A stretch of 49,931 nt of DNA, from positions 1-49,931 of IMG/VR virus record IMGVR_UViG_3300048577_000498. One strand, written 5' to 3'. The DNA is from a virus. Taxonomy: Duplodnaviria; Caudoviricetes. How positions within the stretch are numbered: position 1 is the first letter of the stretch; each line of letters opens with the position of its first letter. Positions 929-47,564 of the stretch are shown here, one piece after another. The translations under genes were made by a program, and so were the position numbers. A model generated the notes under the pieces. The model had not been told where the DNA came from. It saw nothing but the letters and a program-made list of their open reading frames with translations, and ran no database searches.

Positions 929-1117
929 ATGAACGCGAAAGAACTCCAGAAGCTCCTTGCCTCCCACGGGTGCAAATTCGAAACGCATCGCGGCGGCTCC
1001 GGCCACCTCACCGTTCGCCGCGGCGACCGCAAGTCGCAAATCCCGATGCACGGTCAGGGCAAGGAGCTTGGCAAGGGGCTGGTGAACCGGATTTTGAAGG
1101 ACTTGGGCTTAAAATGA
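929..1117 (+). CDS. hicA: HicA family mRNA interferase toxin
   Basis: 62 aa basic protein with GGSGH and IPMHG..KELGKGLV..ILKDLGL motifs; ATGA overlap with the downstream gene. Confidence 0.9.
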   Translation: MNAKELQKLLASHGCKFETHRGGSGHLTVRRGDRKSQIPMHGQGKELGKGLVNRILKDLGLK

Positions 1118-1566
1118 TCTATCTGATCGACGTCGAAAAAGACACGGATGGCTCGCTCCTGGCCACGTGCAGGGCGTTCCCCGAGCTCGTCACCTTCGGC
1201 GAGGACCGCAAAGACGTGCAAATACACGCCGTCGGCGCCCTTGAGGAAGCGCTCGCCGCCCGTATCGCCGATGGCGAGCCGATCCCCGATCCCGCGACAC
1301 CCGCTCAACTCAAGCGGAGCAAGGATGCGGTCTGGGTCAAGCTGCCGCTGATGACGACGCTCAAGGTGGGGCTTTACGAGACGTTGCGTCGGTCCGGCAT
1401 CACCCGCGCCGAATTGGCGCGCCGGCTTGGCTGGAAACGAGAGTCCGTCGACCGCCTGTTCCGCCTCGATCACGCCTCGCGGACCGAGCAGATCGAAGCC
1501 GCCTTGCGCGCCCTGAACCGCGAAGTCGATGTCACGATCTCCGGCCGCGCCGAGGCGGCCGCATGA
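1114..1566 (+). CDS. hicB: HicB family antitoxin with C-terminal HTH
   Basis: FPELVTFGED...ALEEAL...GEPIPDP N-domain plus ITRAELARRLGW HTH; coupled to hicA. Confidence 0.9.
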   Translation: MIYLIDVEKDTDGSLLATCRAFPELVTFGEDRKDVQIHAVGALEEALAARIADGEPIPDPATPAQLKRSKDAVWVKLPLMTTLKVGLYETLRRSGITRAELARRLGWKRESVDRLFRLDHASRTEQIEAALRALNREVDVTISGRAEAAA

Positions 1567-5350: not shown

Positions 5351-6331
5351 CTAGAACCAGTTGGCCTTGAGGACCGCCTTTTTCCTGGCGATCAGGATCG
5401 CGGCGACGATGACGACGGCGACGCCGGCGCCGATCAGCGACCAGGTGACGAGCGGCGAGAGAAGTGCCGGCGGCGCAGCGGGCTGCTCGGTCGTCGTAGT
5501 CGTTTTCTTGGCGGCTTCGCCGGCGCCGCCCACGACCGTGCCGCCGGTTCCGACCTTGACGGCGGCGCGCTCCTTCTTCGTCGCCGCGTCGACGACGTCC
5601 TTGGGCGGCGCCGGCGTCGGCGGTGCTCCCGGCAAAGCCTTGGCGACCGGCTTGATACGCTCCACATTGGCGAACCGCGCGATCACCGGATCGTTGCCGG
5701 CGAGCCGCGCCTCGCGGTCCGCCATGCCGATATGGCCGCCGTTCCAGGCTTTGACGTAGCCCTTCCAGTCGCCGACATCGGCCTTGGCGTTGAGTCCCTT
5801 CCAGTCGATGAAGCCGGCGAGGATCGCGGCCTGGTGCTCGGCCGCACAGGCGAGCACCGGCGCCGCGACGAGGTCGCGGCCGCAGCGCTGGCCGACGTTC
5901 CTGTAGCCGTCGCGGCCGGTGATCTGGGGCGCGCCGCGGCCGATGAACGTAGATCCGTCGCTCGTACCCGGCCGGTTGCCCATGCGGCTGCCATAGACGT
6001 CGTCGAACATCTTGAGCTGCCATCCGGGCGCGGTGCCGTATTTCGCCCGCACCACCGCCGCCGACGGTTTGCCGTTCGCGTCCTTGAAGCGCGACGGCCA
6101 GATCTGCGCCGCCCGCTCGGCCGTGTAGGCGATGCTCTCGGTCAGGTTCTTGATCGTGAAGCCGCCGGTCTCGTGTTCGGCGTTGGCGAGCGCATAGGCG
6201 AGCCGCTGGCGGGTGTGGTTGACGCCCGCTTTGGTCAGTTCGTCCTGGCGGGCGAGGAGCGCGTCGAGGATCGGCTGCGGCGCCTTGGGGAAGATCGCCC
6301 GCAGTCCGTCGGCCGTGAGTTCGATCGGCAT
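5351..6331 (-). CDS. GH19 (chitinase-like) endolysin with C-terminal TM anchor
   Basis: HETGG, FIGRGAPQITGRDGY and WNGG motifs; hydrophobic C-terminus followed by RKK. Confidence 0.85.
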   Translation of the reverse strand: MPIELTADGLRAIFPKAPQPILDALLARQDELTKAGVNHTRQRLAYALANAEHETGGFTIKNLTESIAYTAERAAQIWPSRFKDANGKPSAAVVRAKYGTAPGWQLKMFDDVYGSRMGNRPGTSDGSTFIGRGAPQITGRDGYRNVGQRCGRDLVAAPVLACAAEHQAAILAGFIDWKGLNAKADVGDWKGYVKAWNGGHIGMADREARLAGNDPVIARFANVERIKPVAKALPGAPPTPAPPKDVVDAATKKERAAVKVGTGGTVVGGAGEAAKKTTTTTEQPAAPPALLSPLVTWSLIGAGVAVVIVAAILIARKKAVLKANWF

Positions 6332-6372
6332 GGTGGTCTCCTGGTGGTGATCGGTGAAACAGAGGCGGCCGA

Positions 6373-7437
6373 TCAATCGTCGTCGCCGGTCTCGCCGCCT
6401 TCGGGTTCGTCGCCGCCGGTCTTGGCGGCGCTGCCGCCGCCCTCGCCGTCGTCGCCGAGCTTGGCCTCAACCTGGGTGGTGTAACCGGACTTGTTGAGCG
6501 TGTGGGTCGCCGTCTCGATGATGAACGGGATGCCATCGAGCTCCGGCCGCACGCCGGCATAGACGAGCGGCGCACCGGCGCGGATCGAAGGATCGCCGAA
6601 CAGCGTCACCGAGGTCCGGATCGTCTCGGCCTTGAGGTCCTTCGCCTTGGCCTTGGCGGCCTTCTTGGCCTCGTCTTCGTCCACATAGGCTTCCGGAAGC
6701 GTGTAGTCCGCCTCGCCGTCGTCGTCGCTGTCCTCCTCGACGTCGACGCGCGCGGCCGTCTTGCGGTCCTGGGCGTGCGCCTTGACCTTTTTGAACGAGT
6801 TGCGGTGCTGAAACGTGGCCTGGCAGGTGCCTTCGACGATGTTGTCCGGCGTCGCCGTCACCGCCGTCAGCGCCGCACCGCTGGCCGCCTTCCCGCTGCC
6901 CTTGGCGGCGAAGATCAACATCCCGTTCTTGACCGTGAACAGGGCGCCGTGACGGCGCGCGAGGCGTTCGATGACGTGGATGCCGCTCTCGTCCTCCTGG
7001 CCGAACCACTCGTATTTGTAGCCCGCGACCTTGCCGTCGACCTTGGCGGTCCAGCCGTGATCCTTGGCGATGTCGGTGACGATGTCCTTGACGGTCTTCT
7101 TGTCCCAGTAGCGCGCGCCGTGCTGCTTCGGCGTCTTGCGCATATCGGTGCCCTTGCCGTTGACCGACAGCTTGTAGGGCAGGCAATGCACCTGCGGGTC
7201 GTCGGCCGTGTAGGCGCCGAAAAAGAGCACGCCGGTCTCGCGATAGCCGAGCCGGGCGGTGATGATGTCGCCCTTGCGCGGGATCGCGGCGAACGGATTG
7301 CCGTCGTTGAGTTCGCACGCGATGGTATCGGACGTCACACCTTCCTTGTCGGTGATCGTCACCGAGATCAACCGTTCGTTGAACAGCGAGGCGACCGGGA
7401 CGCCGTTCACCGATATTTCAGCGACGGGGGTTTTCAT
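6373..7437 (-). CDS. P2 gpD-like tail/baseplate hub protein
   Basis: RLISVTITDKEG..SD and Q..ES....RLARRHGA...VKNG.LIF motifs; follows X/U genes; start could be 7458. Confidence 0.85.
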   Translation of the reverse strand: MKTPVAEISVNGVPVASLFNERLISVTITDKEGVTSDTIACELNDGNPFAAIPRKGDIITARLGYRETGVLFFGAYTADDPQVHCLPYKLSVNGKGTDMRKTPKQHGARYWDKKTVKDIVTDIAKDHGWTAKVDGKVAGYKYEWFGQEDESGIHVIERLARRHGALFTVKNGMLIFAAKGSGKAASGAALTAVTATPDNIVEGTCQATFQHRNSFKKVKAHAQDRKTAARVDVEEDSDDDGEADYTLPEAYVDEDEAKKAAKAKAKDLKAETIRTSVTLFGDPSIRAGAPLVYAGVRPELDGIPFIIETATHTLNKSGYTTQVEAKLGDDGEGGGSAAKTGGDEPEGGETGDDD

Positions 7438-13665: not shown

Positions 13666-14763
13666 TCACCATCCGATCGCGACGTAGTGGAACGCGCTGC
13701 TCTCGCTACCGATTGCTCCGCTTGATGTGTAGCGGGGGTAAGCCGAGAACCCAGCGGCCGACTTGTTACCGACGCTGATCGAGAGCAGTGTTGTCGCCGC
13801 ATGGCCGGCTCCCATGGTCGCGACGACTGCGATGCAGGTGGCGGGGAACGTGGCCGGAAATGTCACCCACTGCTCGCCGCCAGATTTTGTGCCCCACTGC
13901 AGAATGAGTCCGTTTGGCAGCTTGAGATAGCCGTCGGTCGCAGTCAGGAGTGCGCTGTCTCCTCCGTGCCAGACCGCAGCACCATTGACGGTGGGCGTGG
14001 TGGTGAATTGGTAGCCGGAGTAGCCGCCCTCGACGGCAAACAAGAGGTACATACCGGCTTTGAAGCCAATGTAGCCGGCGCGCGAGCCATCCGGTTTGAA
14101 GAACGACAGGTAGCCCGGCGCTGAGCCATCGCCCGAGTTCATTGAAACGCTTCCGAGGCCCTCGCTACTGCGGACGGTGACTGTCCCGGCGAACGTGTCC
14201 CCCGCTTTGTCGGCCGGCTGGAAGCCCAGCTTGTCTTGCTTCGCGGCGATCGCCGAGATCATGGCTGCCTCGGCGCTCTCGTCGTTGGCCATCCATGCGG
14301 CAATTTCCTGAAGCGTGTCATAGGCGGCAGGCGCCGAGCCCTTGAGGGCATTGATCGCCGCCGTGATGTCGGCCGGCGTCGCCTTGCCGGCGACCAGCAG
14401 GACGATCTTGGCCAGCGTGTCGTAGTCGCCGGCGACGCCGCCGCGCAGGTCGGTCAGGATCGCCGTCCGCCGCGCGGGCGTGAGGAACTGGCGTCCGTCG
14501 GCCTCCTCGGCGACGAGCGCAGCAGGAACACCCGCACGGTAGTCTGCCAACAGCGCCGCGATCTCGGCGGCGCGCGGCGAGATCTCGGTTTCGATCGCCC
14601 GCACTACGCGGGCGACCAGGACGCTCGCGTCCGAGCCGAGATCGGCCAGGCCTCGCTCGAGCGCGTCGAAACGGAGGTCGACCGACAGCCTGAATTTGTT
14701 CTCGCTACGGAGAACCTCGTCCGTCCTGGCGGCGCGATATTCCGTCTCGAACTTGCGTGCCAT
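13666..14763 (-). CDS. tail fibre with C-terminal gp53-like receptor-binding domain
   Basis: YDTL.EIA repeats, DKAGDTFAG, GYLKLPNGLILQWG...TFP..FP...YVAIGW. Confidence 0.8.
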   Translation of the reverse strand: MARKFETEYRAARTDEVLRSENKFRLSVDLRFDALERGLADLGSDASVLVARVVRAIETEISPRAAEIAALLADYRAGVPAALVAEEADGRQFLTPARRTAILTDLRGGVAGDYDTLAKIVLLVAGKATPADITAAINALKGSAPAAYDTLQEIAAWMANDESAEAAMISAIAAKQDKLGFQPADKAGDTFAGTVTVRSSEGLGSVSMNSGDGSAPGYLSFFKPDGSRAGYIGFKAGMYLLFAVEGGYSGYQFTTTPTVNGAAVWHGGDSALLTATDGYLKLPNGLILQWGTKSGGEQWVTFPATFPATCIAVVATMGAGHAATTLLSISVGNKSAAGFSAYPRYTSSGAIGSESSAFHYVAIGW

Positions 14764-14989: not shown

Positions 14990-17311
14990 TCACTCCGTCG
15001 TGTGGGTACGGCGCTCGACGTGATAAGTCTTTCGGGCGTTGTTGGTGTTGCCGTCGAACCTGATCTTGCAGCCGGTGATGCCGGGGGGGGCGAAGGTGAA
15101 GGTCCAGATCATCTCGACGGCGTCGGCGCGCACGAGGCCGTCGGGCCCGATCACCGGCTTCACCTCAACCGCATCATGGGTCTTGACGGTCGCATACCCG
15201 GCCCCGCACAGGAGCTTGGCGACGAGCGTATGCCGCGCCGCGTCCCACGCACCGACGGTCGCCTTGACGTAGACGGTCTCCAGCGACGAACCGAACGCGA
15301 TTTCGGAAGAGATGTGCAGGAAGTCGTCGTCGGCGCGGAACACCTCGACTTCCGAGGCGCCCGTGTCGAGGATCGGCATGGCCCACTGGTTGCCGGTCAG
15401 GACCACGCGGAAATCGTAGTAGGGCGTCACGCCGGCGCCGAACAGCGTATCGTCGCCCTCCGGCGCCTGGATCGTCTGCCACGTCCCGCCGACCTGGAGC
15501 TGGAAGGTGCGGCTGGCATTCTCGGGCACCACTTCGGCGTTGCGGATGCGGATGTTGTGGATGCCACCATCGAGATTGACGCCCCGCAGCAAGACGGTCA
15601 GCGACGTCAACGGGAACTGACAGTACTCGGTGACGTGGCAGATGTCCCTGGTCAAGTCACCGACGAAGAAGGCACCGTCGGTGGACTCGAAATAATTGCC
15701 CGAAAGGAACTTCTGCCCTTCGGCGCTGGCGACCGTGACGTCGCCGGTGGTGGCGAACAGATAGGCATAGCGCTTGCCGGACTGGAGAAACTGCGGAATC
15801 GGCCACGGGAAGCGCGTCATCTCCGGCCACGCCTTGAATTGCGCCGCCGCCAGCGTGGTCCTGGTCAGCATGCGGCCGGGCCGCGGCGTGCCGTCATCAC
15901 CGCATTCGACCAGGGCGACCGTCACCTCGGCGCCGGCCGACCACGTCACGATGCCGAGCTGCATGCCGGGCGCGAAGCGGTCCTGGCTCTGCAGCCAGGA
16001 TTGCGCCTTGAGGACCCCCTGGATGGTGTGATGAATGGGTGCATAGACACTGTAGGGCTCCTGCACCGTCGTTGACCAGTACTTGCGCACGCGCATCATG
16101 CCGTGGGTCAGGCCGTACTGCACATAGTCCTGGTAGAAGCTCGCAACCTCGTAGGTTTCGTCGCCGATCCGGAAAATCCCCTTGGCGGGATCGTATTGTC
16201 CCGAGGCCCACCATGACGCGTTCGTGCACACCTCGAAGTAGTCCCCGTAAGCCGTCTCCTGCCGACTCATGAGCATTTGTGTCAGCTCCATGGTCTGGTA
16301 GACGGTGCCACCGAGCGGCACGGTGGCGGAACGTTCGGTGAGCTTGATGCCCTCGACGACGTTGTAGCGCGGGCAGATGAGCCCCTGCGCGGTATGCATC
16401 AGGTTGCCGTCATTCGCGTTGTAGAGCGCCAGCGGGTCCTTGTCCTGATTGGCCGCCGGGAAGCGCAAGCCTTCTATGATGCGGGCCTTGTAGTCGGCGT
16501 TGTCGCTGTCGCTCTCGTCTTCGTCGAGGAAGTTGTCGGCGCCGTAAGGCGAGCCGGTGTCGGGGATGTCGAGCCGGTCCTTCATCGAGGCGATGTCGCC
16601 CTGCACCGCCTGGAAGGCAATGCGGCTGACACCCTGCTTGAGCTGGCGGGCGAGCGCGGCGAGGTCGTTGCGCAGGCCGGCGATCTCCTGGTCGACCAGA
16701 CCGAGGCGGATCGCCAGGCCGGAATAGGCGACCGCGAGCGTATCGAGTTCCGGCGCCTCGTTCGCCGTCCGCATGGTGATCGTTTCGATGCCGCCGGTGC
16801 CGACCAGGAGGTCGCAGATGGCCACCGTGCCGAGCGGAATCGCCGGCTTGACCGGGATCACGCTCGGCGCGCCGGGATAAAGCTGCAGGATCGCATTGCG
16901 GGTCTTGGCGCGGGCGCCGGTCGCCGGCACCTGCTGGATGGCGGTGCCGCCGCCGGATTGCGCGATCTCACGTTCGTAGTTGCGCGCTTCAACGAAGCCG
17001 TCGTCCTCTCGGCCCTGTCCGATCAGCGTCACGTAGCACTTCTGGCCGGCGGTGATCGGCACGAACTCGGCGACCGACAGCGTCAGCGTCGATTGCAGCG
17101 CGTACATCACGCCGGCGTCGTAGATCCGGCCGGCGGCGATCTCGACCGCGGTCAGGCCGGAGGCCACCGTGGTGAAGCCCTTGTAGAGCCTGCCCGACAC
17201 CAGGAGGTCGTCGGTCAGCCGAGTGACGCCGTCTTGCGGGAAGCTGCCCAGGCGGTCGAGATCTTCGGCCGTGACTTCCTGGTCGATGTCGAAAATGGCG
17301 CGGTTGTACAT
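14990..17311 (-). CDS. large baseplate/tail-associated structural protein
   Basis: 773 aa with a coiled-coil then a beta-rich region (ADNFLD, EGLRFP, AQSW); follows gpI. Confidence 0.7.
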   Translation of the reverse strand: MYNRAIFDIDQEVTAEDLDRLGSFPQDGVTRLTDDLLVSGRLYKGFTTVASGLTAVEIAAGRIYDAGVMYALQSTLTLSVAEFVPITAGQKCYVTLIGQGREDDGFVEARNYEREIAQSGGGTAIQQVPATGARAKTRNAILQLYPGAPSVIPVKPAIPLGTVAICDLLVGTGGIETITMRTANEAPELDTLAVAYSGLAIRLGLVDQEIAGLRNDLAALARQLKQGVSRIAFQAVQGDIASMKDRLDIPDTGSPYGADNFLDEDESDSDNADYKARIIEGLRFPAANQDKDPLALYNANDGNLMHTAQGLICPRYNVVEGIKLTERSATVPLGGTVYQTMELTQMLMSRQETAYGDYFEVCTNASWWASGQYDPAKGIFRIGDETYEVASFYQDYVQYGLTHGMMRVRKYWSTTVQEPYSVYAPIHHTIQGVLKAQSWLQSQDRFAPGMQLGIVTWSAGAEVTVALVECGDDGTPRPGRMLTRTTLAAAQFKAWPEMTRFPWPIPQFLQSGKRYAYLFATTGDVTVASAEGQKFLSGNYFESTDGAFFVGDLTRDICHVTEYCQFPLTSLTVLLRGVNLDGGIHNIRIRNAEVVPENASRTFQLQVGGTWQTIQAPEGDDTLFGAGVTPYYDFRVVLTGNQWAMPILDTGASEVEVFRADDDFLHISSEIAFGSSLETVYVKATVGAWDAARHTLVAKLLCGAGYATVKTHDAVEVKPVIGPDGLVRADAVEMIWTFTFAPPGITGCKIRFDGNTNNARKTYHVERRTHTTE

Positions 17312-17326: not shown

Positions 17327-18538
17327 TCAGCGACTGACCGTGAGGCCGTAGGTGGCGGTGTCGTCGAGCTTGGCGAGGTCGCCGTACACCAGCGGGCGAA
17401 TCGCATTGATGTCGAGAAACAGCGTGTCGCGCGCCGCCTGCGTCACGCCGAGGGTGCGCGCGAGTTCGGCGACGCGGACCTCCGGGCCGGCGCGCAGATA
17501 GCGCCCGGTCGGCGGGAACGCGCGCACCTTGGGCCCTGGCGCGTGCACGAGAATGGAGGCGGTGAACGCCGGCCGGCGCAGCCGGGTGCGGCCGAGCCGG
17601 TTGCGCATCCGCCCGAGCTGTGCCGAGCTGCCGTCGGCGAGCCGCAGGGACAGATAGGCCTGTTCGTCGGCGCGGTTCGGCCGCACGCCGCGGCGGCGCC
17701 AGGCGCCGTTCGCAAACAGCCCTTGCCCGCCCGGCAGCGGCTCCCACAGCCGGCGCGGGGTGACGTCGATCGGCGACAGGCCGGTCGCCGCGGCGTTCGG
17801 AATATAGGCGTCGCCGCCCGCCGTGAAGGACAGCAGCACCATGCGCTCGCTCGCCAGCCGGCCGTCTGGGACGCGGCGGGCGCGGATGCTCTTGCCGACC
17901 TGCAGCGTGGCCCGCCGCGGCCCGGGGATCACTAGCCGCTCCGGATCAGTCAGCAACCGGCCAGAGGCGTCGAGCCGGACGCCGGCAAACACCAGCGGCT
18001 GGATCGTGCCGTCGCGGCGCAGCTCGGCGCGCCGGCGACCGAGCACGATACGCGCGGCCGAGCCGGCGAACAGCCGGCCGACGAATTGCCCGGCGCGGGT
18101 CCGCTTGATCGCATAGTCCGCAAGATAGATGCGGATCTCCGGCAGTGCCGCCAGCCACGCCGCGTGACTGGCCTCGGTCGGCGCGGCGCCGGCGAAATAC
18201 GCATCGCGCGGCAGCCGGGCGCGGACCAGTTGCGCATCCACATAGCCGAGCGCCATGCGATAGCCGGCGACCGTGGTCTTGCGCTGGTGATAGATGCGCG
18301 CCTCGGCCACGACCTGGCGCTTGCGGTCGAGCGTCCAGGCCTCGTTCCAGATGTCGACCGACCACGCCCAGGCGAGCAGCGGCAATTGGGCGGCGGGACA
18401 CGTCCACGGGTCCCAGAGGGTGCAGATCGCGGCGACCCGGTCGAATTGCGCCGGCAACCGCGCAGCGGTGACGCCGCTGTTCGCCCGGTCGAACGCCGCC
18501 GCGTTCGGCGGCAGAAGCGACGTGACCGCGATACTCAC
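17327..18538 (-). CDS. P2 gpI-like baseplate/tail protein
   Basis: SLLPPNA, LWDPWTCPAAQLPLLAWAWSVDIW; GTG start overlaps the gpJ stop. Confidence 0.85.
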   Translation of the reverse strand: MSIAVTSLLPPNAAAFDRANSGVTAARLPAQFDRVAAICTLWDPWTCPAAQLPLLAWAWSVDIWNEAWTLDRKRQVVAEARIYHQRKTTVAGYRMALGYVDAQLVRARLPRDAYFAGAAPTEASHAAWLAALPEIRIYLADYAIKRTRAGQFVGRLFAGSAARIVLGRRRAELRRDGTIQPLVFAGVRLDASGRLLTDPERLVIPGPRRATLQVGKSIRARRVPDGRLASERMVLLSFTAGGDAYIPNAAATGLSPIDVTPRRLWEPLPGGQGLFANGAWRRRGVRPNRADEQAYLSLRLADGSSAQLGRMRNRLGRTRLRRPAFTASILVHAPGPKVRAFPPTGRYLRAGPEVRVAELARTLGVTQAARDTLFLDINAIRPLVYGDLAKLDDTATYGLTVSR

Positions 18539-19479
18539 GTCTCGACCTCGGTTGCGACTGAAATCGACGTCACATGGGGGGCGCCATCGGCGCCGCCGAC
18601 CACATCCGCCGCCGGCGCGACGACGCGGACATGGCGCGCCGCCCCGACCTTGGCGACGGCGCCGACCGCCTGGGCGTGCAACGTCTCGCCGATCTTGTGG
18701 CGCTCGGCCGCGAGCGCGGCGAGCGCGGCATTGGCCGCCGTGACCACGACGCCGGCATCCGGCCCGGCCGGGATCGCCACGGCCACGCTGATCGTCGTCG
18801 AGACGATCCGGGCCGGCAGCACCGTGACGATATCGGTCGATTGCGAACCGTCCTCGCCCTCGAACACCGCCTGGATGTCGCCAAGCAATGTCTCCGCCGG
18901 GGTGCCATCGCCGGCACGGCCGAGGACGATCAGGTCGATATGGCCGCCGGGCCGGCGCAGTGCGCGGACATCCTTGACCCGGTCGCCGAACAGCGAGCGC
19001 ACCCGCCAGATATAGCCGCCGGGGGTGAGGCCATAGAGCGGCATCGCCTCGTCGGACAATTGCGCCCGGGCGCGATACTCGGCGTCCGGCTCGTACACCG
19101 CGGCGGTATCGGCGGTCGCCGGCACCAGCACGAGCCGCGGCGTGTTCTTGTAGGTCTGCGCCAGATGGTCGAGGTCGGCACTGACCGCAGTCGCGAGCCG
19201 CAACGCGTCGGAGTGGTCGTTGAGCGCCTGCAGCACGTTGATTTCGCCATAGGCGAATCCCTCGGCGAGGATGATCGCGGGATCGGTCTCGACCAGCGGC
19301 GAGCCGTCGGACGCGATGAGGTCGAACACCGGCAGCGTCGGATCCTTCGCCCGGGCGGCGTCCCACAGCGTCTTGAACGCCAGAAGCCGCGCCTTCAGCG
19401 TCGCCTCGAAGTCGATCGCGGTGAAGCTCGGCGCGCCGAGCCGCGACAGGTCGAGGGTTTCGGCCGTGTAGATGGTCAT
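18535..19479 (-). CDS. baseplate J-like protein
   Basis: LDLSRLGAP..IDFE, ETDP, DLDHLA and E.D..YR.R motifs. Confidence 0.85.
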   Translation of the reverse strand: MTIYTAETLDLSRLGAPSFTAIDFEATLKARLLAFKTLWDAARAKDPTLPVFDLIASDGSPLVETDPAIILAEGFAYGEINVLQALNDHSDALRLATAVSADLDHLAQTYKNTPRLVLVPATADTAAVYEPDAEYRARAQLSDEAMPLYGLTPGGYIWRVRSLFGDRVKDVRALRRPGGHIDLIVLGRAGDGTPAETLLGDIQAVFEGEDGSQSTDIVTVLPARIVSTTISVAVAIPAGPDAGVVVTAANAALAALAAERHKIGETLHAQAVGAVAKVGAARHVRVVAPAADVVGGADGAPHVTSISVATEVET

Positions 19480-30816: not shown

Positions 30817-30852
30817 AAAAAGCAAAAGCCCCGGCGCGAGAGCGTCCGGGGC
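30817..30852 (-). terminator. intrinsic terminator between the nusG-like gene and the late operon
   Basis: GCCCCGG/CCGGGGC stem followed by TTTTGCTTTT on the minus strand. Confidence 0.65.
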
Positions 30853-30887
30853 TGGGCACGAGCCGACAAAAGCGTGACTCGGGGTGG

Positions 30888-31514
30888 TCACCGCTTGGCG
30901 ATCTGGTCGAGGTCGAGTTCGACGGGGGTCGGACGGCCGAAGATCGCTGCTTCAAGAATCACCCGTCTTTTCGATTCGTCAAGGTCCTGGATCACGCCGT
31001 CGAACGAAGCAAAGGGCCCGTCGGCAATGCGGACGGTTTCGCCGAGCGCGTAAGCGACCCGTTCGATTGGCGTCTCCAGCGGGATGGCGCCGCCCTCCTC
31101 GAGATTGAGAAGTGCCTGCACCATGCTGTCGGCGACGACATGCGGCAGGTTGTCGTTGAACACCAGGCCGCGAAGCCGGCTCAGTTCGAAGATCTCATGC
31201 CAGCGTTTCACCAGCGGATTGAAGCGCACGAACAAATATCCTGGGAAAAGCGCCGATGTCACCGGATAGGCGTAGCGTTGAATGTGCTTGCGCTGCTTCA
31301 CCGACAGCGTACGGGCCGGCGGCAGCTTCATCTCGCGCATGAGCGGATAGTAGGTCTCGTAGCCGTCGCGCTTAAGAATGTCGCGCGCCGTCGAAATATG
31401 GCGCGCCGACCCGATAGTGAGAAACCACGCCGGCTTGTTCTCGTTCGCGGCCGGACCCATGCCGGCCGGAGCGCCGCGCAACACGCTCTTCATTGCACCC
31501 ACGTTCGCCGCCAT
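30888..31514 (-). CDS. NusG-family antitermination factor (NGN + KOW)
   Basis: LFPGYLFV and GETVRIADGPFASFDG...IFGRPTPVEL. Confidence 0.9.
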   Translation of the reverse strand: MAANVGAMKSVLRGAPAGMGPAANENKPAWFLTIGSARHISTARDILKRDGYETYYPLMREMKLPPARTLSVKQRKHIQRYAYPVTSALFPGYLFVRFNPLVKRWHEIFELSRLRGLVFNDNLPHVVADSMVQALLNLEEGGAIPLETPIERVAYALGETVRIADGPFASFDGVIQDLDESKRRVILEAAIFGRPTPVELDLDQIAKR

Positions 31515-31596
31515 CGCCTCATCTCCTATGCCGCCGCACCCGAACGCTCCGGGAAAATTTCCCCCAGCGTTCCGTTTCCACCTTCCGCAAGTCCAC

Positions 31597-31854
31597 GGGA
31601 GGATCGAAAAATCCTCCCATCGCCAGTCAGCCCAACAAAACACTCAACAGTTCAAAGCCTTAACTCCCTCTCATGGGAGGAACGGGAGGAACGGGAGGAT
31701 TATTCGTCTCTCAACGCACATGCCCGCCTCGCGCCCGCGCGCAGTGAGTCCGCATCCGAAAAATCCTCCCGTGCCGACGCAATCCTCCCGTTACCCATGA
31801 AATCAATGACTTGCAGCGGCCGGCATCCTCCCGCGAACGGGAGGAACGGGAGGA
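31597..31854. repeat. GGGAGGA iteron cluster (putative replication origin)
   Basis: Ten copies: direct at 31597, 31675, 31684, 31693, 31839, 31848; inverted at 31612, 31764, 31783, 31826; A-rich tract about 31634-31663. Confidence 0.75.
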
Positions 31855-36430: not shown

Positions 36431-36744
36431 GCGCGCACCCTTTCAGCTTCTGCCGACTCGAGACGGCCTTCGACGCGCAACTCGATCACGTCGCCGACGT
36501 CGATGATGCCGGCGGCGGTAAGCCACTCCTCGACCACCTGGCGGACCTGGTCGCGCGCCTGCCGGGCCGAGCCGGCCGGGCCGGTACGGCGCGGCCAGTC
36601 CGACAGCGCGACCGTCCACGAATAGCGAGGCCGGCCGGCGGCGGCGCCCTCGTGCACATAGCCGACGCACACCGTGCCGAGCCGCAGGGCCTCGACCCCG
36701 AGGCGCTGCGCCGTCACGGCGAGCACGGGTGCGCGGGCGGTCAT
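36427..36744 (-). CDS. hypothetical protein
   Basis: ATGA overlap with the RT stop. Confidence 0.55.
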   Translation of the reverse strand: MTARAPVLAVTAQRLGVEALRLGTVCVGYVHEGAAAGRPRYSWTVALSDWPRRTGPAGSARQARDQVRQVVEEWLTAAGIIDVGDVIELRVEGRLESAEAERVRA

Positions 36745-37739
36745 GGGTGGCCCCGCGGGATGTCCACGCCCAGGCTGCGGATCAGGTTGCGGCTGTCGGC
36801 GAAGCGGGCGTGGCCGAACCAGCCGGCGAGGAAGCGGCCGAGCGCGGCGGTGTCGCCGGCGGTGGTGAGCGCAGCGATGCGCCGGCGTGCCTTGACGACG
36901 CTGTCGCGGCGCAGGAGCTTGTGGCTCGCCCAGATCCGGTAGCCGAGGAAATTGATGCCCCGCGAGGCCGGCGCTACCTGCCAGTGCGAGAAGCGCAGGC
37001 CGAGCTCGGTGCGGGAGAAGCGCTCGATTTCGTTTTTGAGGCGGCGCAGATGGGCGGCGTCATGGCCGAGCACCACCAGATCGTCCATGTAGCGGTACCA
37101 AAAATCTTCGCCGAGCGCCTGCTGCAGGTGGCGGTCAAGGGTGGCGCCGGTATAGAGATTGGCGAACAGTTGCGACGTCAGGCTGCCGATCGGCAGGCCG
37201 ATGCCGAGGCGCGGCACCATGGCCTCGATCAGGCGCAGCGTCGCCCGGCAGGAGATCTTGGCCTCGATCAGCCGCCACAGCCGCGGCCGCTCGATCGACG
37301 CGAAGTAGCCGGAAAAATCCGTCTTGAGGAACTGCACCGGGGCGCGCCGCGCCAGCCGGCGCAGATCGCTCTGCAGCGCGACGGCGCCGGCATGCGTGCC
37401 TTTGCCGGGCCTGCAGGCGAAGCTCCGCGGCAGCAGCGTGCGCTCGAAGATCGGCCCGATGACGAGGCAGAGCGCCTGCTGGGCGACGCGGTCGCGGAAC
37501 GGCATCGCCGAGATCAGCCGGCGCTTGGGATCGAACACGTAGAACTCGCTCGGCGTGCCGGGCACATAGGTACCGTCGGCCATCTCCTCGCCGAGACGCG
37601 CCAGGTTGAGGGCGTCGTATTCCTTGAAGGCGAGATAGCCGGCCGACAGGCGTTTGCCGCGGGCCGTGAGCCCATAGGCGCGCCGCATCGTCTCCATGTC
37701 GGTGATACGGCCGATCAGGTTGCGAAAATGCTTGGCCAT
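36741..37739 (-). CDS. brt: DGR reverse transcriptase (332 aa from MAKHFRNL)
   Basis: KRRLISA.PFRDRVAQ, GKGTH, LKTDFS.YF.SI, GLPIGSLTSQLFAN (DGR-type SQ), RYMDD, FLGYRI. Confidence 0.95.
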   Translation of the reverse strand: MAKHFRNLIGRITDMETMRRAYGLTARGKRLSAGYLAFKEYDALNLARLGEEMADGTYVPGTPSEFYVFDPKRRLISAMPFRDRVAQQALCLVIGPIFERTLLPRSFACRPGKGTHAGAVALQSDLRRLARRAPVQFLKTDFSGYFASIERPRLWRLIEAKISCRATLRLIEAMVPRLGIGLPIGSLTSQLFANLYTGATLDRHLQQALGEDFWYRYMDDLVVLGHDAAHLRRLKNEIERFSRTELGLRFSHWQVAPASRGINFLGYRIWASHKLLRRDSVVKARRRIAALTTAGDTAALGRFLAGWFGHARFADSRNLIRSLGVDIPRGHP

Positions 37740-38090
37740 CGAAGGGCCCCGCCAATGTGCTGTGAAGATGCCGGCCGCGGGTCTCGAAGAGCACCGCTCC
37801 CTACGCCCCGCTCTGCCGGACCGCGCAATGTGTTCGCCGAAGCGGGACCGGCGGGCTGACCACCTGGTGCGGACGATGCCGCATGTGGCCGGCCGGCGGG
37901 GCCGTGGCCGCCGCCGAGCCGAAGGCGCGCCCACGGGGCCGCGCGCCTTGAAAGGATGGTCACCGCGGCCGCGGGCGCCGATGTCGTCGTTCGAGTTGTC
38001 CGGCCAGTGGTAGCCGACGTTCGCGCGCCGCGACCCGGCGTCGTCGTCGTTCCACCAGCTGCCGCCGAAGATCGACGCCTGCGGCTTCAT
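37740..38090 (-). ncRNA. DGR RNA (TR plus structured 3' spacer)
   Basis: TR followed by a 217-nt spacer with hairpin AAGGCGCGC/GCGCGCCTT (37922-37949); boundaries approximate. Confidence 0.65.
37957..38084 (-). repeat. DGR template repeat (TR)
   Basis: 128 nt, 121 identical to 38565-38692; every mismatch is an A in TR on the minus strand. Confidence 0.96.
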
Positions 38091-38512
38091 TGCCCCGCCT
38101 GCCCTTCCGTCCGCCCGCGGGCGGACGAACCGTGCCGGGCCGCGTCACCGCGGCCGAGCTTCTTGAGCCAGGCGCCGAGCATCCGGCCCGGCTCCGAGAG
38201 GAGTGCCAGCGCGGTGGCGTGCTGGCGCGGGGTGAGGATGCGGATGGTGTCCGCCGCCATGAAGCGCATCAGTGCGCGGAGCGTCGCGAACTCGGCGTCG
38301 ACAGCATGGAGCCGCGACACCTGGCGCGAGCGCGCCGCGTGGTAGAGGCCGCCGATCGGCAGGAACAGCGCCGCCAGCACGGTGTCGCGCAGGACGCTGT
38401 GCTGGCGCGGTGCCGTCCGGACGATCGGGTAGAGGTAGCGCACGAAGGCCTCGTATTTCTCGACGATCGCCAGTGCTTCGACGGATTGCGCCTGGTCGTT
38501 GACGATCGTCAT
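38087..38512 (-). CDS. avd: DGR accessory variability determinant
   Basis: IVEKYE....YLYP....PR.H...RD, L...DAE.A.LR..., E.GRMLGAW four-helix pattern; lies between target and TR. Confidence 0.92.
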   Translation of the reverse strand: MTIVNDQAQSVEALAIVEKYEAFVRYLYPIVRTAPRQHSVLRDTVLAALFLPIGGLYHAARSRQVSRLHAVDAEFATLRALMRFMAADTIRILTPRQHATALALLSEPGRMLGAWLKKLGRGDAARHGSSARGRTEGQAGQ

Positions 38513-38529: not shown

Positions 38530-38549
38530 GCCGCCGCTGTCGCGGCGGC
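38530..38549 (-). other. DGR target-recognition hairpin/cruciform
   Basis: GCCGCCGC-GACA-GCGGCGGC: 8-bp GC stem with a GRNA loop, starting at the target stop codon. Confidence 0.85.
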
Positions 38550-39463
38550 TAGCCAAGCTGCAGGTGGTCACCGCGGCCGCGGGCGCCGAAGTCGACGTCC
38601 GAGCTGTCCGGCCAGGGGTAGCCGACGATCGCGCGCCGCGACCCGGCGTCGTCGTCGTTCCACCAGCTGCCGCCGAAGATCGACGCCCGCGGGATGTCGG
38701 GATCGCCGTCGTGCCCCCAGACCCACAGATTGCCGGTCGCCTGCATGATGCCGCTCGCCGAGGTACGCGGCGCGTCGAGGCCGGTGCGCTCGGGATCGCC
38801 ATCGGCGCTGGTGCACTCGGTGACCCCGTAGGCGGCGGCGACGAACTCGTCATAGGACAGCAGCGCCTTGCCGTGGTGGGCCATCACAACACAGGCGGCC
38901 GCATAGTCGAAGCGCCTGAAGCGGCCACCGGCTGGATCCTGCGGCTCGCTGTCGCCGTCGGCGATCTCGGCGCCGTAGACGCTGGTGCCGGCATCCATGT
39001 GGTCGACGCCGGTCAGATAGATGTCGCACCAGAACAGACCGTCACGGCCGGCGATCAGTACCATGCCGCGCGGGTCCGGACATGCGGGCCGGAAATTCAT
39101 GTCCCAGATCGAATAGGGATTGATCTCCGGCGTCACCCCGCCGCCGGCGCGGCCGATGGCGTTGCCGCCGGGCGCGTAATGGAAGCCGCCGAGGATCTCC
39201 TCGCCATAGGGCGGGCGGCCGAGTCTCACGATCTCGATCGCGTCGGCGGTGACTGCGACGCCGTAGTCGGCGCCGGGCTCGAACTGCGGCCCGTTGAGTT
39301 GGCGGGACGGCGCCGGCACCGGGGTGAGCTCGGAAAACTCACGGCCGCGGAAGACGACGCCGGCCGCGATGGCGATCGATGCCGGGCCGGTGACGACCAG
39401 CGCCGGGATATCGACATTGAGCTTGCGCAGGGCCGTGGCCGGCGGGCTGACATGCTGGTTCAT
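38549..39463 (-). CDS. DGR target: Mtd-like C-type-lectin/FGE-fold protein
   Basis: GGFHYAPG, INPYSIWD..FRP...DPRGM, FWCDIYL, QATGNLWVWG, FGGSW, GSR, GARG..DHL motifs match my recollection of BPP-1 Mtd; VR at the 3' end. Confidence 0.9.
   Translation of the reverse strand: MNQHVSPPATALRKLNVDIPALVVTGPASIAIAAGVVFRGREFSELTPVPAPSRQLNGPQFEPGADYGVAVTADAIEIVRLGRPPYGEEILGGFHYAPGGNAIGRAGGGVTPEINPYSIWDMNFRPACPDPRGMVLIAGRDGLFWCDIYLTGVDHMDAGTSVYGAEIADGDSEPQDPAGGRFRRFDYAAACVVMAHHGKALLSYDEFVAAAYGVTECTSADGDPERTGLDAPRTSASGIMQATGNLWVWGHDGDPDIPRASIFGGSWWNDDDAGSRRAIVGYPWPDSSDVDFGARGRGDHLQLG
38565..38692 (-). repeat. DGR variable repeat (VR) with G/C tract and start of IMH
   Basis: TR copy at the 3' end of the target; substitutions at 38590, 38595, 38599, 38604, 38616, 38628, 38688. 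Confidence 0.96.
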
Positions 39464-40548: not shown

Positions 40549-40715
40549 GCCGCCCTCTCCTCTTCTTGGGCCGCCGGCCTCTGTAGGAACAGCCGGCCGC
40601 CGATCGGCTGCTCGTCCGGAACTAGCCGCCAGCCGCAGGCGAGGTGCGGCTGGACTTCGTCGATCGGCACCATGGCGCCGGCGATGCGATTGTCGTGATC
40701 ACGCGGCGTCGTCAT
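40545..40715 (-). CDS. small hypothetical protein
   Basis: 56 aa ORF overlapping both neighbours. Confidence 0.4.
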   Translation of the reverse strand: MTTPRDHDNRIAGAMVPIDEVQPHLACGWRLVPDEQPIGGRLFLQRPAAQEEERAA

Positions 40716-43482
40716 GGCGGCCCTCGCCGGTGTCGCGTGTGTCTTCGTCATTGTCGGCGGGCGGCGGGTCGCGATGCCGGCGCAGGCCTTCCGGCAGAAC
40801 CGGGAAGTCGTCGTCGACGGACGGCGGTGCCGTCCGTGCGTAGCCGATGATCTTCGGGCCTTCCGACGCCGTCTCGCCCAGCGCCGCACGCCAGTGGTCG
40901 ACGATCGCCGCGTCCATGGCGGCGGCGCGGGCGAGGTCGGGATCAGGCCCGGCGGCGACGCGATGCTCGAAGGCGCCACAGGCACAGGTGGCGACCAGCT
41001 CGCTGGCGCCGTTGTCGCGAGTCCTGCGGATCAGGTGGCCGGCGGCGACGGCGCGATCGGCCAAGGCCTCGCCCTCTCCCGGAGCGAGGTTCGCGAGGCG
41101 CTCGACCGCCAGGGCCTGCTCGCGGGCGAGTTCCTCGCGGTGGGCGCCGGCGCGATCGTAGTCTGCGATGGCCTCCTCGATATCGACCTGGGCTGGCTTG
41201 CGGCCGCGCTTCTTGCGGGAGGTGGGAGGTGCGATCGACGGTTGATCCCGCTCGACCACGATCGGAGATGGGAATCCATGCAGCCCGCGCCCGGCCCAGG
41301 CCGAATACGCCTCATCCCAGGACGCCGGCATGCGATAGATGCTGTCACTCTCGCCGCCAGCCGCCGGCCACGCCATTGCCTCATCGAGATCCGATCGCGC
41401 CTGGTCGTCAACGGTGACGCAAAACGCTGGTCCATCGGCGCCGAGGCGACCGTAACCGTTGATGTAGCTCATCGGGGACTCGACGGCGGAGTGAAGTTCG
41501 ATTTGCATTTCTTCGTCGTGAGTGACGATTGCGCTCGTATCTCCGATCGCGACTTCAAACATGCCGCGCTGCCCCCACATCGGCACTTGGCCTATGGGGG
41601 CAGCGGTCTCTCGGCGCAGGCGCTCGGCCGGCGACTCCTCGGTTGACATCCCGAAATTCGTGCCGCCGTTCGCCTTGACCTGCAGACGTTCCAGCCGCTT
41701 AGTCTCGCGGGCGACGATCTCCTCGCGCTTGCCGGAGATCGCCGTGCCCTCGATATGCTGGAATTCCGGGCCAAGGATCGCGTCGTGCCGGCGCTGTAGC
41801 GTCACCCGATAGTCGGCGATCATCCCGTCGATGTCGTCAGGCAGGCCGGCGAGGATCCTAGCCTCGAGTTTTTTCTCGCGCAGAACGGCCAGACGCTTCG
41901 CACCGGCCTTGGTGAGGGTCGCGCGGTCGCCCGCCCCCTTGACGAGCTTTTGTTCGCGCAGTTCCTCGCGCTCGTCGATGGTCAGGCCGGCAGCCCGGCC
42001 GTCCGCGATCATTTCGAGCCGATCGAGGTCTGTGCGGACAGCGGGCGTTTCGACCGGCGCCGCCGCGTGCTTGTCCACCTGGTCGCCGTGGCCGTCCCAC
42101 AGCTCGCCCTCCCCGCCGGTCGAGAAGATCGACGCGTAGCGCGGCGCCGGGAAAGTGCGCTCCCACAGCCGATAGAATTCGTCGGGCTTCTGGGAATTGT
42201 CCCGGCGCTGGGCATTGAGCAGGGTCGACGGCGGGTCCTGGCCGAGCACGTTGGTGACCGGCTTGCCGCGCAGCAGGACGATGCAGTGCTCGGTCTTGTC
42301 GCGCAGCACCTGGCCGCGACCAAGTCTGTCCTTGGCCCAGGTCAGCATGGTCGAGGCGCGCCAGTCCGGCCCCAGGGCGGCGATCAGGCGATGGGCGGCG
42401 CCGTTGACCAGGTGATGGTTCGTGACCCAGAAGCCGAGCGAAGCGTCGGGGCCGAACAGCGGCGCCACCTGTTCGCGCATGAAGGCCTCTCCCTCCTCGA
42501 TCGCCATGGCGGGATAGGGACGCAGCGACCGCCCGCGCTCGTCGATCGAGGCTTGGTCGTCGTCGCTCTCGTGCGGCCACGGATAGTCCATCGAGCCAGA
42601 GACGTAAGGGCCGTTGCCCGGCAGCGGCGGCGGCGCCGCGCGCAGGCGGTCGGTCGCCTCCATGATCTTGAGCCGTTTGTGGGCGCCGTCGACCTTGCCG
42701 GTCCGGTTCATGTCATCGGCGAGTTTTCCGAACCGCTCCGGATCGCGTTCGGCTGCCTCGGCGACCGCTTCAGCCTTCTGCAGCGTGCGGCCGGAGATGC
42801 CGCCGATCTCGCCGACTTTGTCGGCGGTGCGACCCTTGCCGGCGACGTCGCCGGACTTCTTGCGCCCCGGCGCCGTCAGGCCGTGGCCTTTGCGCCCGTG
42901 CGCCTCGCCGGCGAGCTTGGCCTCGATCGCCCGCTTGATGGCGACCAGTTCGAGCGGCTTGAAGGGCTCGCGCTGCTCGTTCGCGTCATACTCGCCGGCG
43001 ATGATCGAATCGATGTCGACGATCGAAACCGGGATCGGCGCCTTGCCGTAGTCGCCGACCTTGGACTTTGCCCAGGCGAGCATGCGGCGCTCGCCGTCCA
43101 CCAGCGTGCCGTCGGGCGTGATGACGATCGGTTCGAGCAGCGCGCCGCGGGCATCGATCGACGCCGCGAGCGCGGCGATGTCGCCCTTGTCCTGGCGGAA
43201 GCGGTTGGCGACCTTGATGTCGGAAAGATAGCGCCGCGGGCTTTCCGTCTGCGTCAACACCGGCTGCCATACGGCTTTTCCCGCCGGCCCGGCGAGCGGC
43301 GCCAGGGCGTCGGCGAGCGACACCGGCTTTGCGGCCTTCGGTTTCGCGGGTGGCGCCTTCACGGCCGCCTTCGCGGCCTTGCGGGCCTTCGGCATCTTCG
43401 CCGCCGGCGCGCGCTTCGGCGCCTTGGCGGCCTTGCCGGGCTTCGCCTTCGTCTTCGCCGTCTTCGTCGTCTTCGCCATCAC
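40699..43482 (-). CDS. ParB-like / MT-A70 methyltransferase multidomain protein
   Basis: LLEPIVI...LVDGERR (ParB-N), DYPW, FWVTN, TWAK...G.G..LR..TEH, SQKPDEFY (MT-A70). Confidence 0.82.
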   Translation of the reverse strand: MMAKTTKTAKTKAKPGKAAKAPKRAPAAKMPKARKAAKAAVKAPPAKPKAAKPVSLADALAPLAGPAGKAVWQPVLTQTESPRRYLSDIKVANRFRQDKGDIAALAASIDARGALLEPIVITPDGTLVDGERRMLAWAKSKVGDYGKAPIPVSIVDIDSIIAGEYDANEQREPFKPLELVAIKRAIEAKLAGEAHGRKGHGLTAPGRKKSGDVAGKGRTADKVGEIGGISGRTLQKAEAVAEAAERDPERFGKLADDMNRTGKVDGAHKRLKIMEATDRLRAAPPPLPGNGPYVSGSMDYPWPHESDDDQASIDERGRSLRPYPAMAIEEGEAFMREQVAPLFGPDASLGFWVTNHHLVNGAAHRLIAALGPDWRASTMLTWAKDRLGRGQVLRDKTEHCIVLLRGKPVTNVLGQDPPSTLLNAQRRDNSQKPDEFYRLWERTFPAPRYASIFSTGGEGELWDGHGDQVDKHAAAPVETPAVRTDLDRLEMIADGRAAGLTIDEREELREQKLVKGAGDRATLTKAGAKRLAVLREKKLEARILAGLPDDIDGMIADYRVTLQRRHDAILGPEFQHIEGTAISGKREEIVARETKRLERLQVKANGGTNFGMSTEESPAERLRRETAAPIGQVPMWGQRGMFEVAIGDTSAIVTHDEEMQIELHSAVESPMSYINGYGRLGADGPAFCVTVDDQARSDLDEAMAWPAAGGESDSIYRMPASWDEAYSAWAGRGLHGFPSPIVVERDQPSIAPPTSRKKRGRKPAQVDIEEAIADYDRAGAHREELAREQALAVERLANLAPGEGEALADRAVAAGHLIRRTRDNGASELVATCACGAFEHRVAAGPDPDLARAAAMDAAIVDHWRAALGETASEGPKIIGYARTAPPSVDDDFPVLPEGLRRHRDPPPADNDEDTRDTGEGRHDDAA

Positions 43483-46897: not shown

Positions 46898-47146
46898 TCA
46901 TGACGCGGGCTCCGGCGCTGAAGTGCCGCTCTCAACCTTGTCCCCACCGAAGCCAGCCAGGGCCTCGAATGTGACGGCGGAAATTCCCCGTGCACGTGCC
47001 TCGGCGACCAAGGCGCCCCAATATGCGGATGGGATGCCGCCACGGGCGCGCCAACTGCTCACCGTGGAGGCCGCCACGCCGAGAAGCCCGGCAACCTTGC
47101 CTGTGCCACCCAGCGCGTCGATGACCGAATCAGCGTTTGCGTCCAT
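46898..47146 (-). CDS. Cro-like repressor
   Basis: IDALGG...VA..LGV..STVSSWR.RG.IP; divergent from the cI-like gene. Confidence 0.8.
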   Translation of the reverse strand: MDANADSVIDALGGTGKVAGLLGVAASTVSSWRARGGIPSAYWGALVAEARARGISAVTFEALAGFGGDKVESGTSAPEPAS

Positions 47147-47160
47147 AGATGCCGAACTAC

Positions 47161-47201
47161 TTCGCAAATTGCGAAGCGGTCAAGAGTTCGCAGAATGCGA
47201 A
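47161..47201. promoter_or_regulatory. operator pair between cro and cI
   Basis: TTCGCA-AAT-TGCGAA (47161-47175) and TTCGCA-GAA-TGCGAA (47187-47201) flanking a minus-strand TTGACC. Confidence 0.8.
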
Positions 47202-47237: not shown

Positions 47238-47564
47238 ATGCGAAGCGACCCCACCGAGATGGCGATCAGACTCGCCGCGACACGGAAAGCGCTCGGCTAT
47301 GAGGGCCAGACAGAGTTTTGCGAGGAGATCGAGGTCGGACTGAACACCTACAATCCGTTTGAAAAGGCAAAGCGCCTCATATCGTTAGGCGTTGCCATCA
47401 AGATCAAGGCCAGGTTCGGCGTTCCGCTTGATTGGACGATCCTGGGCGACATGGCTTTCCTGCCGACATCCATCTCCAAGAGCTATCGCGAAGCCCGGCC
47501 GATCGCCGAAAAGGAATTCTTCGCACGCACACGGAAGAAATCAGGCAAACGCAAAGTCGCATGA
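47238..47564 (+). CDS. CI-like XRE-family HTH repressor (no peptidase domain)
   Basis: RLAATRKALG...QTEF...YNPFEK..R...FGVPLDW.ILG. Confidence 0.8.
   Translation: MRSDPTEMAIRLAATRKALGYEGQTEFCEEIEVGLNTYNPFEKAKRLISLGVAIKIKARFGVPLDWTILGDMAFLPTSISKSYREARPIAEKEFFARTRKKSGKRKVA

Follow-up and report, generated by a model that had tools for sequence, protein, structure and literature searches.

The 49.9-kb record of a temperate phage analyzed here (the window, 49,931 nt in full) carries within its early genes an intact DGR whose target is a 304-aa homolog of the Mtd protein of Bordetella phage BPP-1, trimmed of two Mtd elements. Based on the placement, the strand, the independence from tail type and the two structural losses observed across a whole clade of such proteins, it can be proposed, with a probability of about one half, that this early-operon Mtd-derived target is an early-made, cytoplasmic, non-virion binder whose ligand would probably be a host protein that varies, for instance a component of a defence system. 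The usual interpretation of phage DGR targets is that they are virion adhesins. A close Mtd homolog encoded in early operons, without anchor and without site-bracing loop, can therefore be set against the best-studied DGR target as a controlled comparison.

The DGR Cassette and Its Genomic Surroundings

The head module of the window is of lambda type, its contractile tail is P2-like, and an integrase gene lies at the right end. Closely spaced minus-strand genes run from a Cro-like HTH gene through a ParB-like gene and a ParB/MT-A70 gene to the DGR, and from there to two primase genes, a NusG-like antiterminator and the virion genes. The relevant features are the following:

47259-47564 (+), HTH_3 gene, divergent from the Cro-like HTH gene (weak match)
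46898-47167 (-), Cro-like HTH (weak match)
38549-39463 (-), DGR target, 304-aa Mtd homolog with beta-sandwich and C-type-lectin fold (Pfam, Mtd alignment, model)
38565-38692 (-), VR, codons about 258-300 of the target, 7 substitutions relative to TR
38530-38549 (-), hairpin just past the target stop, 8-bp GC stem and GACA loop, BPP-1 type (z -2.2)
38087-38512 (-), avd, 141 aa (Pfam bAvd, E 4e-24; phrog_3206)
37957-38084 (-), TR, 22 adenines in 17 codons (VR alignment)
36741-37739 (-), DGR RT, 332 aa, YMDD intact (phrog_1423, E 1e-103; RVT_1)
13666-14763, tail fibre with Gp53-like_C domain, 23.8 kb from the target

A preliminary description of this DNA had placed the cassette between the ParB/MT-A70 and primase genes of a cro-initiated leftward operon, about 24 kb from a tail fibre with a gp53-like tip and without visible TR homology. 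The placement was upheld, with the ParB-like and ParB/MT-A70 genes upstream and the two primase genes downstream, as were the distance, the nature of the tip and the lack of TR homology in the fibre gene (the TR scan scored 106 at the VR and at most 13 elsewhere in the window). As for the start of the operon, a minus-strand Cro-like HTH gene does head the closely spaced genes, but the Cro-like match is weak. The late terminator located downstream of the cassette fared similarly, being no more than a consensus match at 30828-30891 (15 matches vs 9.7 ± 2.9 in shuffles). No sigma70-like site that could serve as an own promoter was detected near the cassette, in a scan that is insensitive in GC-rich DNA, and the upstream ORF gave no usable match in Atlas.

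Other genes of the window deserve mention. A NusG/KOW antiterminator (30888-31643, minus strand) followed by terminator-like hairpins lies at the early-to-late junction, and similar genes occur in two related loci (L012, L013). The ParB/MT-A70 gene (40699-43479, minus strand) encodes a 926-aa protein with a ParB-like domain and an MT-A70 methyltransferase, besides an N-terminus rich in Lys and Ala and a long C-terminus that lacks annotation, and shorter ParB-methyltransferase relatives of it are present in 26 loci. Between the baseplate and tail-fibre genes, 14990-17311 (minus strand) encodes a conserved 773-aa protein of phrog_17470 (E 2e-133), a family without an assigned function. A HicA/HicB-like toxin-antitoxin pair (929-1566, plus strand), on the opposite strand to the late genes, adjoins a D12-class adenine methyltransferase gene (1717-2562).

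Evidence for Adenine-Specific Rewriting

TR and VR differ at 7 of 128 nt and all 7 mismatches fall on the 22 TR adenines (chance 1.8e-6); with this TR about 3e12 protein variants are possible. Besides this A-specific TR/VR pair, the cassette has the RT motif, an avd gene between target and TR and a hairpin 3' of the VR, confirming that it is an intact, canonical BPP-1-type DGR. The signature extends to the family: in 84 TR-VR pairs, 987 of 1951 A sites differ vs 25 of 8302 non-A sites, YxDD is kept in 58 of 59 RTs, and VR-downstream hairpins with GAAA, GGAA, GACA or GCAA loops are found in 54 of 95 clade targets. Adenine-specific TR-to-VR rewriting has thus happened in the window and across the family. 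The underlying process would be mutagenic retrohoming according to the BPP-1 model, with the A-specific signature in its support. Near-identical proteins from Agrobacterium and Rhizobium differ mainly in the VR, which is indirect evidence that retrohoming may be ongoing in this phage.

Fold of the Target and Lost Mtd Elements

The target aligns with Bordetella Mtd from residue 55 of 381 onwards (E 1.9e-48) and Pfam mtd_2nd matches at its residues 23-121. A hidden longer N-terminus was considered and discarded because a stop interrupts the reading frame two codons 5' of the ATG; the protein thus starts at the beta-sandwich and is without the N-terminal beta-prism, as the preliminary description had it. 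With no longer ORF available and Mtd 1-54 absent from the full alignment, no intact fibre-attachment domain is present. Structure prediction against Mtd, which had been recommended, yielded an AlphaFold model (mean pLDDT 84.7) with the Mtd fold (Z 33.9, rmsd 4.0, 279 aligned residues, 42% identity), the next match being at Z 10.5. Since the VR residues 265-288 have pLDDT <50, no claim is made on the shape of the binding site.

Beyond the beta-prism there is a second loss, which the preliminary description had not noticed, that of Mtd 313-330 in the beta2-beta3 loop. In Mtd this loop braces the site of the neighboring protomer, to which it supplies Tyr322 and Tyr333 (PMC2408619). No Tyr stands opposite Mtd Tyr333 in the alignment of the window target, and the place of the loop is taken here by a short conserved DGDPxxPR-like turn. 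The target differs from a tropism determinant of the Mtd type in its N-terminal attachment segment, its beta2-beta3 loop with Tyr322/Tyr333 and its location outside a tail module. Neither lipobox nor Tat motif was found in its sequence and PADLOC gave no match for it. The hydropathy peak of 1.98, a crude measure, exceeds the cut-off of 1.8; nevertheless, no TM helix is predicted, in line with the earlier claim, because no helix of the model exceeds 10 residues.

A Separate Branch of Trimmed Mtd Homologs

Homolog scans returned 67 viral and 21 genome loci, whose named hosts are mostly Rhizobiales. The target tree (FastTree, 110 rows, midpoint root) sets 96 short proteins, including the window target, apart from the other 14 rows, BPP-1 Mtd among them (SH 99), and the RT tree has a matching split of 53 vs 6 (SH 100). 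These trees show that target and RT each form a branch of their own, apart from the Mtd type. The clade is over-sampled because the homolog searches were seeded with the window target. The family is rare: when 400 genomes of the order were sampled, only 2 had it apart from the centre genome. The cassette is present in cultured isolates of Rhizobium, Mesorhizobium and Shinella, and the database label of the clade proteins is "phage major tropism determinant."

At most 30 residues precede the sandwich in 92 of the 96 clade proteins vs 67 in Mtd, and the four proteins with a longer N-terminus may be start-call errors. This leader is unconserved and near-absent in some members. The loop equivalent to Mtd 313-330 is present in none of the 96 clade rows vs all 12 aligned long-branch rows. 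These alignments show a family without a conserved N-terminal attachment segment and without the neighbor-site loop. In a wider profile search (best 150 of 1121 matches, 141 of them measurable) a short N-terminus was found in 17 of 22 short-loop proteins, 3 of which are fragments, vs 12 of 119 long-loop proteins. One tail-module Mtd, L060, has only 30 residues before the sandwich, and since it sits among tail genes, a missing beta-prism does not by itself indicate a non-tail role.

The genomic context separates the two branches as well. At least one early-type marker lies nearby in 89 of the 96 rows of the short branch and none in 7, whereas virion genes are near 12 of the 14 long-branch rows, the other two (L058 and L063) being without context. 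These labels rest on the annotation of 126 of 254 further multi-member neighbor clusters, with singletons largely unscanned, and one neighbor at L014/L066 showed weak tail-fibre matches (E 1e-8). Among 60 non-redundant loci, RT is present in 52 and two or more targets in 36, a CI- or CII-like gene is near 39, a same-strand integrase lies downstream in 29 and same-strand replication genes in 10. Of 93 upstream genes, 92 share the strand of the clade target, and the gap between the two has a median of 49 nt. The position of the cassette varies among loci and both early arms are occupied.

Scaffold dN/dS values range from 0.06 to 0.42 in 11 pairs with dS <0.5, and over 30 pairs they have a median of 0.34 and reach 0.71; saturation of synonymous sites in this GC-rich DNA has probably raised the values of distant pairs. 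These ratios show purifying selection on the target scaffold. Paralogous targets are 46-72% identical and carry different VRs served by one TR. Three tandem targets with one TR were observed in a complete Rhizobium chromosome (L080:9998-12786).

No conserved dedicated partner gene was found among the annotated clade neighborhoods, nor a credible fusion in the annotated loci, leaving no pointer to a ligand from these sources. Two single-sequence clusters were considered as fusions and rejected: P0001 (ParB plus target) is probably a frameshift, because its Arg-rich linker looks off-frame and the family's usual start comes right after it, and in P0072 (target plus XRE HTH) the end of the VR is cut off. 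A DUF5131 gene, in many cases the immediate neighbor of the cassette (e.g., L015:13796-14875), occurs in 27 loci and is absent from the window; further common neighbors are beta-clamp, GapR-like and HD-phosphatase genes.

Placement, Strand and Tail Type in Complete Genomes

Ten relatives that are 90-100% complete were compared together with the window, and 87 selected late ORFs were scanned. These 11 genomes comprise two with a P2-like sheath, three with a Mu-like sheath and six with siphovirus-type tail genes, in which the scanned ORFs included no sheath. In 7 of the 11 the virion genes lie on the strand opposite to the targets. In all 10 genomes that have a TR it matches only early Mtd-like genes, and no TR homology was found in tail genes of the window or of the 9 relatives with a TR (background scores ≤15). 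The survey of relatives for early-operon placement that the preliminary description had recommended revealed an early-type context that is clade-wide and extends to dozens of related phages.

Two genomes show unusual arrangements. In L013/G004, a provirus called complete, the cassette appears frozen, with two intact targets and avd and with no TR or RT found. In G001 (17708-18577 and 6136-7002) a remote second target with a full VR match lies about 11.5 kb from the cassette and is the first gene of the operon after the repressor.

Possible Function of the Early Target

Altogether, where the genes lie, their strand, their occurrence with different tail types and the two clade-wide structural losses suggest that the predicted binder likely has a non-virion, cytoplasmic binding role. 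This evidence supports a non-tail, early-operon target and thereby, in part, the non-virion, early-expressed protein that had been proposed; anti-defence, host takeover and inter-phage competition, which had been listed as its purpose, are indistinguishable. It can be hypothesized that a DGR of the tail tip moved a single time into the early/regulatory arms of alphaproteobacterial temperate phages, where the target would have lost its virion anchor and often been duplicated. The midpoint root and the wider spread of long forms argue for the direction from tail to early operon, the move itself being deduced from the trees. Infection or induction would set off transcription from early promoters under repressor control, and selection would favor those VR variants that bind a polymorphic intracellular target. 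A defence component appears the most plausible target based on the methyltransferase-rich neighborhoods, a weak argument as such genes are common in early regions. In its most specific form, which is advanced tentatively, a receptor-binding DGR might have been converted as a whole to intracellular use: rhizobial and related temperate phages might make one to three hypermutated Mtd-derived binders early in infection that neutralize polymorphic host defence proteins, acting as an antibody-like, programmable anti-defence repertoire.

Against a cytoplasmic binder stands the resemblance to a proven virion adhesin, with which the target shares its fold, about 40% of its residues and the retained beta-sandwich. 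L060 with its short N-terminus among tail genes, the short N-termini of 12 of 119 long-loop proteins, the weak tail-fibre matches at L014/L066 and the failure to find a conserved partner gene or credible fusion also weigh against it. In addition, the affinity of Mtd is micromolar and avidity at the level of the virion is needed (PMC2408619); a free cytoplasmic protein would be without this avidity, which counts against the reading. The same observations, that is, the Mtd fold with its identity, and an avidity requirement that favors multivalent display, speak for a target that is still displayed on the virion as an adhesin or decoration, made early and later assembled via the beta-sandwich, in which case the DGR would adjust a secondary binding to hosts or surfaces. 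L060 shows that a short N-terminus is compatible with a tail module, and in published surveys targets with an Mtd domain are taken to be tail proteins (PMC5758913). This explanation is nonetheless unlikely, as one family is found with three tail architectures and several capsid families, lies antisense to virion genes in most of the 11 genomes and has an unconserved leader and no site-bracing loop. The hypothesis of a soluble lectin that accumulates in the cell and is freed at lysis, masking receptors on debris or on neighboring cells, would agree with an ancestral fold that binds cell-surface receptors and with the lack of a detected export motif. No link to lysis genes was seen in the annotated neighborhoods, and the weak monovalent affinity deduced from PMC2408619 would make a diluted soluble protein ineffective, so that this hypothesis is very improbable.

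A cytoplasmic binder could also be directed against competing phages or mobile elements (superinfection interference) and possibly be expressed in lysogens too. Such a role shares the non-virion anatomy of the preferred early host-directed binder, and divergent paralogs with different VRs from one TR are expected of a repertoire against varied targets. It is decidedly unlikely since the genes are tightly coupled within repressor-controlled arms, which are silent in lysogens by analogy with lambdoid phages, no promoter-like site is near the cassette and PADLOC gave no match. Least probable is a mobile cassette that hitchhikes in early operons with little benefit to the phage: its varied positions in both early arms and its rarity in the sampled genomes would fit, but the scaffold is under purifying selection, long-diverged paralog pairs are retained and two intact targets persist in G004 even where no TR or RT was found.

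The cultured carriers (Rhizobium, Mesorhizobium, Shinella) make the diversification of intracellular binders by phage DGRs directly testable. If phage DGRs do diversify such binders, one could learn from the ligands which defence or regulatory proteins of the host are strongly pressured by phages.

Comparison With Known Systems

No description of the clade was found in the literature searched, including the consulted parts of PMC6199706, PMC6328139 and PMC12724379, most subscription journals being outside the search; none of the DGR terms looked for occurs in PMC12429752 or PMC11080155. The clade was likewise not found in the portion covered of the preprint of Roux et al. (10.1101/2020.04.01.020958), whose supplements, outside the search, may cluster such targets. 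Table S1 of Wu et al. (2018, PMC5758913) lists for Bradyrhizobium sp. YR681 an "Mtd homolog" with an 894-nt target and 22 TR adenines and with no structural homolog entered within 20 kb; judged by this table entry alone, this target is probably a member of the clade. It would belong with category "a" of these authors, which shares with the window a CLec1 VR in an Mtd domain and differs in that its members, in the part of the survey consulted, are Mtd-sized, diversify tail proteins and are not split by length, loop or placement.

The nd4/nd12 target2 proteins (PMC10743442) resemble the window target as short (234-294 aa) CLec targets without beta-prism. They differ in being also without beta-sandwich, as DUF6273 proteins for which the authors suppose an Mtd-like role.

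ORF 80/84 of Quimbyvirus (Benler 2021, PMC8008677) is also a CLec DGR target outside the structural module, located among methyltransferases and with a proposed role in phage-host conflict. There, however, the DGR has one target gene next to the tail fibres and ORF 80/84 is a second, remote one, whereas the early operon of the window contains the complete cassette and no VR was detected among the tail genes. Since a non-structural phage DGR target has already been proposed there, and the DGR machinery of the window is canonical, the term "undescribed system" used in the preliminary description was too strong.

The closest comparison is the DGR of Bordetella phage BPP-1 (mtd-avd-TR-brt), with which the window shares the order target-avd-TR-RT, an A-specific C-terminal VR, the downstream hairpin and the beta-sandwich plus CLec fold. 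In BPP-1, mtd follows the tail genes, whereas the window target is found among early genes and is without Mtd 1-54 and 313-330, and its relatives, unlike BPP-1, often have two or three paralogous targets. What is new here is the target of this canonical DGR, which belongs to an Mtd subfamily that is distinct, structurally trimmed and probably relocated.
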